Assembly (NCBI GenBank): GCA_951812955.1
Contig: OX638340.1
Location: 1,504,001 to 1,568,000, forward strand
Source of the DNA: an uncultured Gemmatimonadota bacterium
Lineage (GTDB): Bacteria > JAAXHH01
Reading direction: 5' to 3'
Length of the DNA: 64,000 bases
This document shows, piece after piece, positions 44,096 to 46,934 of the stretch; within the stretch, counting starts at the first letter, position 1; each line of letters starts with the position of its first letter. The notes under the pieces were generated by a model. The model ran no database searches and was not told the DNA's origin. It saw only the letters and a list, made by a program, of their open reading frames with translations. Both the position numbers and the translations under genes were made by a program.

Positions 44096-45196
44096 TTACC
44101 TTGCCAGCCACGTGCTGAAGCGCTCGTTCATCTCTTCGCCGTTGTCGCTCCACCATTCCCAGTCGTTATGCAGGGCGCGGACCACATTCTCCGGGGCCGT
44201 GGGCATGTGCGGTTTCATGTCCACGCCCGTCTCGGCATGGGTAGAGATCAGCGGCATGGCGGAGCGGCGCGTCGGACTGTAGGCGATGTACCGGCCAAGA
44301 TCAGCCATTGACCGGGCGGTTGAAGCGAATTTGAGAAAACGGATTGCGGCTTCGAGGTTGCGCGTGCCCTCGACGATGCCATAGCCGCTCGTATTCAGGA
44401 TCTGGCTGTCCCAGAGGATGACGAAGGGTTGTCCCTCGAGTACCTGGGCATTGAAGATGCGGCCGTTGGCTGCCGTGGTCATCGTCACCTCGCCATCGGC
44501 CAGCATCTGCGGGGGGTAGGCAGCGGTCTCCCACCAGACGATGTGCTCCTTGATGGTGTCCAGTTTGCGGAACGCGCGGCGAACACCTTCCTCGGTGTCA
44601 AGCGTGGTATACACCTCTTCGTGCGGCACGCCGTCCGCCATGAGCGCGAACTCAAGATTGGCCACGGGCGTACGTTTCATACCCCGCCTGCCCGGAAACT
44701 TTTCCAGGTCGAAGAAGTCGGCTATAGTGGCGGGTTTCACGTCGCCAATCCGCTCGTCGTTGTATGCGATCATCCTCGAAAAGAAGATCTTGGTAACGCC
44801 GCATTCCGTGACCGTACCCTCGACGAAATCATCCGCCGCGGGCGTACCATCGGCACCCGGTGGCAGATCGACGACGTTAATAGGAACGAGCAACCCTTCG
44901 TCGCAACCCCGGACGAGATCGGGCATGTTCAGATCAACCACATCCCAGTACACATTTCCCATCTCCACCTGGGCGCGGATTTGCGCCAAACCCCCGGTGA
45001 AGTCCTCCAAGTTGATGTTAATGCCTGTTTCCGCTTCGAATCGTTCGTGGTAGCCTTTGTCACAGGCGCGGGCGTAAGAGCCGCCGTAGCTGACTACGGT
45101 GAGGGGTTGGGCTTGGGCTGTGACACGACCTGGGAATAGTGAGATCAGTATGATCGCCAGCGTCCCATACAACCCATTACAAATCCATCTTATCAT
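44096..45196 (-). CDS. Orphan paralogue (about 75% aa identity) of the ABC substrate-binding protein at 1674..2777
   Basis: The protein aligns over its full length with the SBP at 1674. The C-termini …NDWEWWSDNGEEMNERFSTWLAR are identical. It has its own signal peptide (MIRWICNGLYGTLAIILISLFPGRVTAQA). No transporter genes are adjacent. Confidence 0.85.
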   Translation of the reverse strand: MIRWICNGLYGTLAIILISLFPGRVTAQAQPLTVVSYGGSYARACDKGYHERFEAETGININLEDFTGGLAQIRAQVEMGNVYWDVVDLNMPDLVRGCDEGLLVPINVVDLPPGADGTPAADDFVEGTVTECGVTKIFFSRMIAYNDERIGDVKPATIADFFDLEKFPGRRGMKRTPVANLEFALMADGVPHEEVYTTLDTEEGVRRAFRKLDTIKEHIVWWETAAYPPQMLADGEVTMTTAANGRIFNAQVLEGQPFVILWDSQILNTSGYGIVEGTRNLEAAIRFLKFASTARSMADLGRYIAYSPTRRSAMPLISTHAETGVDMKPHMPTAPENVVRALHNDWEWWSDNGEEMNERFSTWLAR

Positions 45197-45793
45197 TTTT
45201 GTTCCAGCCAGAGCATTTCGAATTAGGCTATGACTAAAGTGTGGATTTCGTTTGTGACTAGGTATGAGGTATGGTTATGAATCTTACACAGACCGAGTCG
45301 TCAGTTTTATCTATAAGGTATCTACGGTGAAATGCAATCTACATTTACTGGAGAATGCCAGAAGGAATCAAATCAAAGAGCCATGTATCAAGCATCAAGA
45401 AATTGTGGCGTAGGAACGTGGATCTGAATTGAATACGTCAATCGTGTACAAAATGACAGTCGGAATACTCAATAGCCGTATCCCTGGTAAAAATCATCAT
45501 CGTTAACCTATAATGTGAAAATTGACAACCATGTCGTCATAAAACTATGAAATCTTACAACATGGTATACAAAATACGTAATACCAACCTAGCCGATCGC
45601 TTGCTCCGAACATCACCCAACCGTTTGCCCAACATTCCCCGCAACTACGCAGATCAGCGCATTAGCGTGCATGCAAAATATCGATATTTATACGGATAGT
45701 TTACGAGATTATTGCTATTCCCCCGACTGGTATGATACATACCTTGTGTAGTATGAGCATGCTGGTGATATCTCATCAAAGGAACCAAGTAGA

Positions 45794-46027
45794 ATGGAAC
45801 TCGCGCAGCTACTCATCACGCCAGGCACACTGCTGACGGCCTTCATCTTCTTCTGGAAACAGGCCAAAACCGGCAGGGACGAAATGAGGCGGGAATTGAA
45901 GGCAGATATGAAGGAATTGAAGGACGAGTTAAAGGTAGAAATAACTTCCGTCCAGACAGAAGTGCACGATATGAACGGACGTCTCGGCCGCGTCGAGGGC
46001 TTGCTGAAGGCAACGGGCTCCGGTTGA
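45794..46027 (+). CDS. Hypothetical small protein (77 aa; N-terminal TM plus coiled-coil) inside the low-GC island
   Basis: The ORF lies in a ~40% GC segment. I found no homology. The call is weak. Confidence 0.3.
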   Translation: MELAQLLITPGTLLTAFIFFWKQAKTGRDEMRRELKADMKELKDELKVEITSVQTEVHDMNGRLGRVEGLLKATGSG

Positions 46028-46188
46028 TTGCGGCAGAATTGCCGACGCATCGTGGTTTATCTAATGGAACCCGTTATGCTCGCCGAAGAAGATATCGAAG
46101 CCCGGCCGATTGCGCGATTCTCAGATCTGCCGGATTCCAATGATCTGTGGCCATAGAGCATGTTGAGGTGCCGTGATGGTCAATCGCA

Positions 46189-46689
46189 CTACTTTCCATT
46201 CGCCTTCCAATAATCCGCCAGCGCCCTGCCTTTGATCTCCCTAAGTGAATCTCTCATTTTCTGTCTACCGGCTTCGTCATTGGTCACGACACCGAAAGTG
46301 CTGTAGTCGCCGGGCTCCATGTGCATCCTGACGAAAACGCCTTCAGCGTGCGACTCGAATCGTACAAAGTGACCGAACGCGATATTCATGTCGTAGACGT
46401 ATCCCTGAAGCTCGCCCGCGCTATTCTCGTTCTCGATGCAGTATATGTTGACATACAACACCAGTTCATCGAAATCCCACGATCTCTTGCGATTGATCCC
46501 CGCTTTTTCCAACTCGCTATCCACGATCGGTTCGAGGTTCCATCCGCATTGGGTATCCTCATGAAATTCAACAAACAGCTCGTCGGGTTTTTCGTTCTTA
46601 AGGTGGGAAAGATCCACTTTTGACTGAGCCCGCGCGTTGTATGTGAAAACCAGAACGCAGGTGGCTAACGACATTAGCAGGTATCTCAT
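46189..46689 (-). CDS. Hypothetical secreted protein (166 aa) with atypically low GC
   Basis: The signal peptide is MRYLLMSLATCVLVFTYNARAQS. The ORF is about 48% GC against a background of about 65%. I recognise no family. Confidence 0.5.
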   Translation of the reverse strand: MRYLLMSLATCVLVFTYNARAQSKVDLSHLKNEKPDELFVEFHEDTQCGWNLEPIVDSELEKAGINRKRSWDFDELVLYVNIYCIENENSAGELQGYVYDMNIAFGHFVRFESHAEGVFVRMHMEPGDYSTFGVVTNDEAGRQKMRDSLREIKGRALADYWKANGK

Positions 46690-46934
46690 ATAGTCATGCC
46701 CTTTCCAAGGGTTGGTTGTTCTAAATTCGACTGCAACAGGCCACCTGTTTTACATCAAGGTAGCTGTTGACGAAAATGCGTATGTGAAGTGGTGTTATAT
46801 TGCGATGGTTTGAATATACATTCTGGTATTCTTTGCGTCAGCTCAGATTCTACCTGGTTTCCCCTACCAGACCTGCTTTAGTCCAGCCTTGTTTCTCCCC
46901 AGCCTGGCTTCCTATCAGACTGCTTCCTGCTTGC

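Follow-up and report, generated by a model that had tools for sequence, protein, structure and literature searches.

We describe a strain-variable slot in a 64-kb window (by which we mean the whole stretch of DNA analyzed, 64,000 nucleotides of contig OX638340.1) from an uncultured Gemmatimonadota bacterium. Here, a low-GC stretch with two small genes, orf77 and orf166, separates the conserved core gene gatB from SBP2, an orphan gene for a periplasmic solute-binding protein (SBP). We believe that this stretch is likely to represent a nearly empty allele of a hotspot for defense and variable genes that lies between gatB and SBP2. Far from being a recent copy, SBP2 is an ancient paralog of the operon-encoded SBP1 and is kept under purifying selection. 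The two small open reading frames (ORFs) that the initial annotation had placed in the tract are both found as described, and the locus is composed of the following features:

44096-45196, minus strand: SBP2, orphan PotD/PotF-class periplasmic solute-binding protein (PF13416, E value 6e-39)
45121-45513: AT-rich segment specific to the window, 393 bp, about 38-40% GC, without a match in any retrieved locus
45514-45626: segment shared only with the related loci L001, L002, L009, L011, L021 and L022
45514-45793, plus strand: conserved non-coding region upstream of orf77, 73-97% identical to L001, L006, L009-L014, L021 and L022
45627-46028: orf77 with its upstream region, present in every relative that reaches the gatB side
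45794-46027, plus strand: orf77, small membrane-anchored coiled-coil protein of 77 aa
46029-46940: orf166 cassette (the gene with spacers of 161 bp and 245 bp), an indel polymorphism
46189-46689, minus strand: orf166, secreted protein of 166 aa
46935-48428, minus strand: gatB, conserved core flank gene (PF02934 and PF02637)

The variable slot between gatB and SBP2

The same neighborhood was retrieved from related assemblies through homologs of orf166, orf77 and SBP2, which gave about 15 metagenome loci. On the gatB side, the order glnA, htrA, psd, pssA, DUF4321, FG-GAP, gatA, gatB is collinear in L001-L003, L005-L008, L012 and L018-L020, the gatA-gatB side being collinear in at least 12 loci, and gatB keeps the same position, at 82-94% nucleotide identity, wherever a related locus extends to this side. 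On the opposite side, SBP2, PhyH and sulfatase genes follow each other in the same order in L001, L003, L007 and L015-L017. Both flanks lie on one contig in L001, L002, L003 and L007 and, more distantly, in L018. The gap between gatB and SBP2 is 1.74 kb long in the window. In L001 it reaches 2.8 kb, in L003 4.7 kb and in L007 6.3 kb, and L005, L006, L008 and L012 all exceed 10 kb. The relatives hold from 1 kb to more than 10 kb of changing cargo in this gap, with at least seven different gene contents among the related loci. Among the loci compared, the window allele is the shortest and the sole one free of defense genes. The relatives carry the following cargo:

L001 and L002: NOV_C nuclease-like gene (PADLOC PDC-S36, E value 1e-97)
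L003: IS3 element, AAA_14 fragment and NOV_C
L007: AAA_14-DUF4143, GGACT and IS3
L005, L006 and L008: AAA_14-DUF4143 (PDC-S01 in L006), methylase and specificity subunits of type I restriction-modification (R-M), and GmrSD; in addition GGACT in L005 and L008, PIN in L005 and L006, and PDC-M11A/B in L006
L009, L021 and L022: HsdM and GmrSD; HsdS also in L009 and L021
L012: DUF4143 fragment, HsdM, SIR2 with a HerA-like ATPase, HsdS and PIN
L015-L017 (from the SBP2 side): HsdR in all three; DUF4011 helicase in L015; HsdS, PIN, nSTAND3 and NOV_C in L016-L017

Recognized anti-phage systems are abundant in this cargo and include type I R-M, GmrSD, PDC-S01, PDC-M11A/B, PDC-S36, SIR2 with a HerA-like ATPase, PIN and nSTAND3. 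PADLOC matched no defense model in the window, which we therefore regard as the unoccupied state of the slot. ARAGORN detected no tRNA or tmRNA in the 64-kb window, no integrase or transposase ORF lies in 45100-46940, and the flanking repeats in 44900-47200 are short and at chance level, save for a 21-nt repeat inside orf77; IS3 transposase genes occur only in the relatives L003 and L007 and not in the window. The proposal that the low-GC stretch is acquired DNA holds insofar as the stretch is accessory and strain-variable, with an orf166 cassette that is present, absent or pseudogenized among the relatives, but it does not extend to SBP2.

Pairwise BLAST searches and alignments against the related loci define the limits of the individual modules. 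L001, L002, L003, L006, L007, L008, L013 and L014 carry the orf166 cassette, and in L009, L010, L012 and L021 about 85 bp take its place. On the far side of orf77, homology ends at 45627-45632 in L006, L010, L012, L013 and L014 and at 45514 in L001, L002, L009, L011, L021 and L022. The metagenome contigs L013 and L014 themselves stop at 45627-45632, as would be expected at a point of strain divergence in a metagenome assembly. Homology restarts at 45118-45120, that is, at the first residues of the mature SBP2 protein. The segment in between (45121-45513) covers 317 bp upstream of SBP2 as well as the 5' end of the gene, where the signal peptide is encoded (45121-45196), and neither blastn (word size 7) nor tblastx matched it to any of the retrieved loci. 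An exact 23-mer of this unique spacer was absent from the JGI metagenomes, and a degenerate pattern taken from the conserved part recovered two more occupied alleles, L021 and L022, in a metagenome scan. Since the SBP2 signal peptide is different in every ortholog while the mature part is conserved at 89-92% nucleotide identity, the variable region reaches into the 5' end of SBP2. Each allele brings its own SBP2 export signal together with its own upstream region.

Moreover, synonymous divergence (dS) is discordant along the locus. In comparison with L006, orf166 and orf77 have a dS of 0.06-0.08 and gatB of 0.25, and in comparison with L001, gatB has a dS of 0.20 and orf77 of 0.65, a pattern that is consistent with the exchange of modules by recombination. 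We propose that cargo turnover most likely occurs by homologous recombination through the conserved flanks, which would be gatB and orf77 on one side and the mature-protein-coding part of SBP2 on the other, with IS3 elements contributing occasionally. The minimal allele of the window consists of gatB, an optional orf166 cassette, one orf77 with its upstream region and 393 bp of unique AT-rich DNA, the last of which supplies the upstream region and the signal-peptide-coding end of SBP2.

Several points weigh against the reading of the stretch as a nearly empty hotspot allele. In L005, L006, L008 and L012, the SBP2 flank lies beyond the 10-kb flanks, and that their cargo occupies the same slot is concluded from the gatB side. 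The label "empty" presumes that orf77 and orf166 are not themselves a defense or exclusion system, and the recombination mechanism is deduced from breakpoints and dS discordance. In addition, the same 393-bp spacer was found in no other genome among the loci retrieved and the JGI metagenomes, and a deletion scar, an assembly collapse and never-occupied DNA are for this reason indistinguishable as origins of the allele.

Hotspots of this kind have been described in cultured bacteria, namely the core defense hotspots cDHS1 and cDHS2 of Pseudomonas aeruginosa, which are flanked by core genes (Johnson et al., 2023; PMC10250203), and the defense hotspot repertoire of E. coli, in which most cargo is located on identifiable mobile elements (Hochhauser et al., 2023; PMC10121019). 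Similar to these loci, the slot between gatB and SBP2 has a fixed position between conserved housekeeping genes and a content that varies among related genomes, relatives hold several defense systems side by side, and occupied and unoccupied alleles coexist. Unlike in these loci, the allele in the window is unoccupied and without a defense gene, the far junction lies inside the signal-peptide-coding end of SBP2, and the comparison covers an uncultured clade with about 15 metagenome loci as opposed to hundreds of isolates. In contrast to the E. coli hotspots, only IS3 copies (L003 and L007) and no integrase or att sites were seen. The locus is a further example of well-described phenomena and leaves the current understanding unchanged. 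It shows that a compositional "island" can be merely the unoccupied allele of a variable slot, and that an "orphan" SBP can be an anciently retained paralog which acts as a flank and of which the signal-peptide end alone is swapped with the cargo. The slot could be used as an anchor to harvest defense cargo from metagenomes, like the cDHS loci in Pseudomonas, and is of modest value in this respect; uncharacterized cargo in the relatives includes the PDC-S01, PDC-M11 and PDC-S36 candidates and ORFs of 100-300 aa without families.

Some details of the flank and the cargo are of separate note. The mechanically called gatB ORF begins with a TTG at 48539, which places 115 nt of it in overlap with gatA. 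Translation more likely begins from the ATG at 48428, which overlaps the gatA stop in the usual 4-nt gatA/gatB arrangement and gives the conserved protein start. Within the cargo, hsdM is split into two ORFs in L006 (14914-17363) and L008 (15015-17010), the second hsdM ORF of L006 is fused to a PIN domain, and L021 encodes an intact HsdM-PIN fusion of 819 aa. The placement of GmrSD between hsdM and hsdS recurs in several alleles and is unusual.

SBP2, its age and its likely role

Three further features of the window bear on the origin and function of SBP2:

541-4840, plus strand: complete PotABCD-type ATP-binding cassette (ABC) importer operon, with ATPase (541-1677), SBP1 (1674-2777) and permeases (2805-4025 and about 4022-4840)
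1674-2777, plus strand: SBP1, operon-encoded solute-binding protein (PF13416)
43093-44007, minus strand: PhyH-family Fe(II)/2-oxoglutarate dioxygenase (PF05721)

Both SBP2 and SBP1 match PF13416 (SBP_bac_8) and PF01547 in Pfam, SBP2 over the full length of PF13416 (134.9 bits, cut-off 27), and the N-terminal signal peptide of SBP2 reads MIRWICNGLYGTLAIILISLFPGRVTA/QAQ. The two proteins share 257 of 343 aligned residues, in agreement with the identity of about 75% given by the initial annotation, and their C-termini are identical as claimed, over a run of 27 residues (RALHNDWEWWSDNGEEMNERFSTWLAR) instead of 13. SBP2 is likewise an orphan as described: to one side of it lie the genes for PhyH, a sulfatase, an APH-family kinase and two Sel1-repeat proteins, to the other lie orf77, orf166 and gatB, and none of these encodes an ABC ATPase or permease.

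We consider it barely credible that SBP2 is a recent duplicate of SBP1, or that it was acquired horizontally along with the low-GC DNA as a single island, the two origins that had been put forward. The 75% protein identity, the identical C-terminus and the fact that SBP2 abuts the lowest-GC DNA of the 64-kb window would be in line with such an origin. However, the genes are only 72% identical at the nucleotide level and agree at just 49% of third codon positions, which indicates that synonymous sites are near saturation. The longest stretch of exact identity in their alignment measures 35 nt, and the alignment contains neither a gene-conversion tract nor any window above 83% identity. The database relatives also argue against a recent duplication. 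About half of the 120 best relatives of SBP2 are closer to SBP1, and among the clearest matches one group is 80-92% identical to SBP2 and 70-76% to SBP1, and a second group is 84-98% identical to SBP1 and 70-75% to SBP2. SBP1 and SBP2 belong to two distinct ortholog lineages that are older than the radiation of the clade.

Horizontal acquisition is at odds with the composition of SBP2, which is near native, with a GC content of 0.589 and a third-codon-position GC content (GC3) of 0.733, compared to a GC3 of 0.73-0.82 in core genes and 0.64-0.69 in the small genes. It is also at odds with synteny: SBP2 and PhyH are adjacent in six related loci (L001, L003, L007, L015, L016 and L017), and this arrangement persists across genomes whose gatB dS reaches 0.6-0.8. 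Syntenic SBP2 orthologs are 82-97% identical in amino-acid sequence, and the ratio of nonsynonymous to synonymous divergence (dN/dS) is 0.07-0.20 for each of SBP2 and PhyH. Finally, homology to the relatives restarts exactly at the mature SBP2 N-terminus, and SBP2 is thus a flank of the slot and not part of its cargo.

The PhyH gene follows SBP2 in the same orientation after 88 bp, a gap that is as small as 10 bp in L015; the two genes are probably co-transcribed. A search by sequence found no solved relative of the PhyH protein. The 64-kb window contains no Pot-type permease or ATPase genes other than those of the 541-4840 operon, which matches TIGR01187 (potA) above the cut-off, PotB and PotH below their cut-offs, and PF00528 twice. 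The closest solved structure to SBP2 is 8jv1, with full-length similarity (E value 3e-72) and deposited as spermidine/putrescine-binding; a literature search on this Protein Data Bank entry found no paper, and the ligand is known from the depositors' name alone. Further solved relatives (E values 1e-36 to 1e-47) are MotA, which binds mannopine, the Atu4243 class, which binds gamma-aminobutyric acid (GABA), and an agropine binder. In NCBIfam, neither SBP1 nor SBP2 reaches an equivalog, the PotD model giving 27.8 bits for SBP1 (cut-off 582) and nothing for SBP2. SBP2 accordingly resembles PotD/PotF-class binders in its full-length similarity and in matching PF13416 above threshold, and is unlike them in reaching no NCBIfam equivalog. 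Its solved relatives bind chemically diverse amines and opines.

Directly after the Pot-type operon lies the gene for a Rieske ring-hydroxylating oxygenase alpha subunit (4996-6099, minus strand) and beyond it a gene for a pyridoxal phosphate (PLP)-dependent decarboxylase (6247-7752, minus strand), which hints that the substrate of SBP1 is an oxidatively catabolized amine or quaternary amine. Because each binding protein has its own oxidative enzyme nearby (PhyH for SBP2, Rieske oxygenase and PLP decarboxylase for SBP1), SBP1 and SBP2 may have distinct substrates. The most economical reading of this gene arrangement would be that the two paralogs bind different amine-type solutes and that each paralog is tied to its own oxidative enzyme. 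SBP2 would most likely bind an amine-type solute (of the polyamine, GABA, opine or quaternary-amine class) unlike that of SBP1 and probably deliver it to the PotABC-type permease of the 541-4840 operon or to a transporter outside the window, after which the solute may be oxidized by PhyH. The pairing with the PotABC-type permease, a pure inference, is weakened by the fact that the window covers just 64 kb out of a genome of roughly 3.8 Mb. Orphan or additional solute-binding proteins that share one ABC permease are exemplified by HisJ and LAO (ArgT) with HisQMP2. Like in that system, SBP2 is encoded away from permease and ATPase genes, and a full operon with a 75%-identical SBP is present elsewhere in the genome. 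Unlike there, sharing of the permease by SBP2 is a candidate relationship, and SBP1 and SBP2 are old paralogs, each with its own oxidative enzyme.

A second point prone to rearrangement may lie near PhyH and sulfatase, which are separated by a DEAD helicase gene and DprA in L001 and L002. A DEAD/ResIII helicase occurs near the PhyH-sulfatase pair at differing positions (14825-18287 in L001, 14205-17642 in L015 and 18675 onward in L003) and is followed by DprA in L001 and L015; the window has neither gene there, and the sulfatase gene comes directly after PhyH.

Composition and non-coding DNA of the slot

At 37-53% GC against a mean of 60.5%, the tract at 45.1-46.9 kb is indeed the lowest-GC tract of the window. 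The drop against its surroundings is real as reported, although these surroundings are less GC-rich than the 65% stated, the flanking genes having 59-64%. In 200-bp windows, GC is 35-41% at 45.2-45.7 kb and then 44-53% up to about 46.9 kb. A scan in 1500-bp windows shows that the base composition is atypical relative to the host, with the minimum of the 64-kb window (0.465) at 45128, about 3.9 standard deviations below the mean (mean 0.604, standard deviation 0.036); the only other 1500-bp stretch below 0.52 is the Sel1 region at 37.4-40.5 kb. Other intergenic spacers of the window also fall to 40-46% GC in 200-bp windows, and the depth of the trough is therefore only slightly unusual; it stands out by its length more than by its depth. 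Most of the drop is owed to about 1 kb of spacers at 40-53% GC, which comprise 597 bp at 40.0% (45197-45793, the non-coding stretch of about 600 bp noted previously), 161 bp at 52.8% and 245 bp at 46.1%. The genes orf77 and orf166 have 50-54% GC and a GC3 of 0.64-0.69, compared to 0.73-0.82 in core genes. Unusually long AT-rich spacers and two small, moderately low-GC genes together account for the trough, which is not a freshly integrated element.

The initial annotation had further suggested that the low-GC stretch could conceal a degraded mobile remnant. We think it unlikely that the 597-bp stretch is a decayed gene or mobile remnant (for example of NOV_C, AAA_14-DUF4143 or hsdM) left after deletion of a once-present island. 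The stretch does sit exactly where the relatives carry cargo, it is AT-rich like cargo DNA (46-49% GC in L006), and the AAA_14 fragment of L003 shows that decay occurs at this site. Yet tblastx and sensitive blastn searches with 45101-45800 against all retrieved loci matched only the syntenic upstream region of orf77 and nothing in 45121-45513, which bears no likeness to the relatives' cargo genes, and the 44-50-aa ORFs of the stretch belong to no family, with no Pfam or PHROGs match even at E values of up to 1. With tblastx and word-7 blastn against the relatives' cargo, no relic of NOV_C, AAA_14 or hsdM was found in the spacer, although there is a small chance that the stretch is a very old or foreign remnant.

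A structured non-coding RNA (ncRNA) or riboswitch that controls SBP2 or orf77, which had likewise been suspected here, is in our view very improbable. In its favor are the length of the gene-free AT-rich spacers and the upstream region of orf77 (45514-45793), which is kept at 73-97% identity and contains a block of about 35 nt, roughly at 45700-45740 (GTTTACGAGATTnTTGC...CCGACTGGT), that even distant relatives with unalignable surroundings retain. This block, however, probably is a promoter or operator; in close relatives it is followed by a TAnAAT-like hexamer that resembles a -10 element. A scan for promoters and terminators found as many of them as expected from shuffled sequence. At gathering thresholds, Rfam matched nothing in the whole 64-kb window, and in permissive mode the best match in 45000-47100 was a chance match to a small nucleolar RNA (19 bits against a gathering threshold of 37, E value 3.8). 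The minimum free energies of folding of four spacer segments gave z-scores of -0.16, +1.30, +0.43 and +0.70 relative to shuffled controls. Moreover, the 393 bp closest to SBP2 are conserved in none of the relatives.

orf77, orf166 and the host lineage

Both small genes are real, as judged from their dN/dS of 0.1-0.4. The orf77 family has more than 234 homologs of 69-132 aa, which share a nearly invariant N-terminal hydrophobic or transmembrane segment (MELAQLLITPGTLLTAFIFFWKQAKTGRDEL) and an invariant C-terminal motif (EMHDMNGRLGRVEGLL). The stalk in between consists of heptad-like repeats in variable number, the lengths differing in steps of about 3-4, 7 or 11 residues, and the window copy contains an internal direct repeat of 21 nt (45892-45933). 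The dN/dS of orf77 is 0.10-0.38. The gene is single copy in the window and forms tandem arrays of three to five genes in five relatives:

L003: 10500-11513
L005: 10445-11406
L007: 10943-12226
L008: 10680-12363
L018: 7691-8648

In every relative that reaches this side, orf77 is next to or near gatB. Since the orf77 array still adjoins gatB directly even in the distant loci L018-L020 (GCA_009841265 and GCA_009844515), we regard orf77 as native and syntenic. The database protein P0012 is 100% identical to orf77.

For orf166, the search found 11 close homologs and 51 clusters at 50% identity, with proteins of about 165 aa, and the gene is under purifying selection (dN/dS 0.14-0.21). Its signal peptide has a conserved AQA/Q (AxA-Q) signal peptidase I site at residues 20-23, and Cys11, which precedes this site, is conserved in the context L-A-[TA]-C, a doubtful lipobox. 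The predicted alpha/beta fold of orf166 resembles the LptE/PelC/TraT/CsgG periplasmic lipoprotein fold, LptE, PelC, CsgG, HpaA and TolB-N matching at similar Z with a sequence identity of about 10%. Unlike lipoproteins of this type, orf166 has no sequence-family membership, with no match in Pfam or NCBIfam, and no associated partner gene of the LptD, PelB or CsgF type. In L005, the orf166 ortholog (9779-10267) has two in-frame stops and is a pseudogene, of which the database entries P0009-P0011 (91-99 aa) are C-terminal fragments.

The small ORFs had been said to lack recognizable homology. This is correct for Pfam, PHROGs, PADLOC and NCBIfam, where orf77, orf166 and the mini-ORFs of 42-50 aa matched no family and gave weak coiled-coil noise only, and it is incorrect for database homologs, which exist for both genes. 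A foreign origin of the two ORFs is contradicted by conserved homologs in the same syntenic position, fully for orf77 and partly for orf166.

We also weighed whether orf166 and orf77 could form a small, undescribed envelope-level exclusion or defense module, in which a secreted protein with a TraT-like fold would act with a membrane coiled-coil protein, so that the slot would not be empty. We judge this to be improbable. The fold of orf166 is a generic periplasmic lipoprotein sandwich that its matches share at similar Z, the sequence identity to these matches is low, and neither gene has a PADLOC or PHROG match or relatives in viral contig scans. Moreover, orf77 stands without orf166 in L009, L010, L012 and L018, and the two are therefore not an obligate pair. 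The fixed place of orf77 next to or near gatB across the clade would fit a housekeeping role in the envelope. There is a similarly small chance that the orf77 family is an undescribed envelope "ruler" or scaffold or, together with orf166, a novel module for surface exclusion or anti-phage defense that seeds the hotspot. If the two genes did form such a module, the "empty" allele of the window would be functional, as a minimal system, and would not be leftover DNA. The mildly intriguing remainder of the locus is this variable-length orf77 family together with the optional orf166 and its TraT/LptE-like predicted fold.

Finally, named database matches place the lineage in Gemmatimonadota, and the hotspot belongs to a lineage of this phylum that is known only from metagenome assemblies. 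Sel1-type eukaryote-like repeat proteins and sulfatase are typical of sponge symbionts. Together with sample names such as ENGE20-1, the sulfatase and Sel1 proteins of the window suggest that the lineage is probably sponge-associated. About 1200 sponge-associated metagenome-assembled genomes have been surveyed by Robbins et al. (2021; PMC8163846). The two large Sel1-repeat proteins of the window (36108-40050) are 590 aa (14 repeats) and 690 aa (17 repeats) long, and their genes make up its second low-GC tract, with 50-55% GC and a GC3 of 0.53-0.58.

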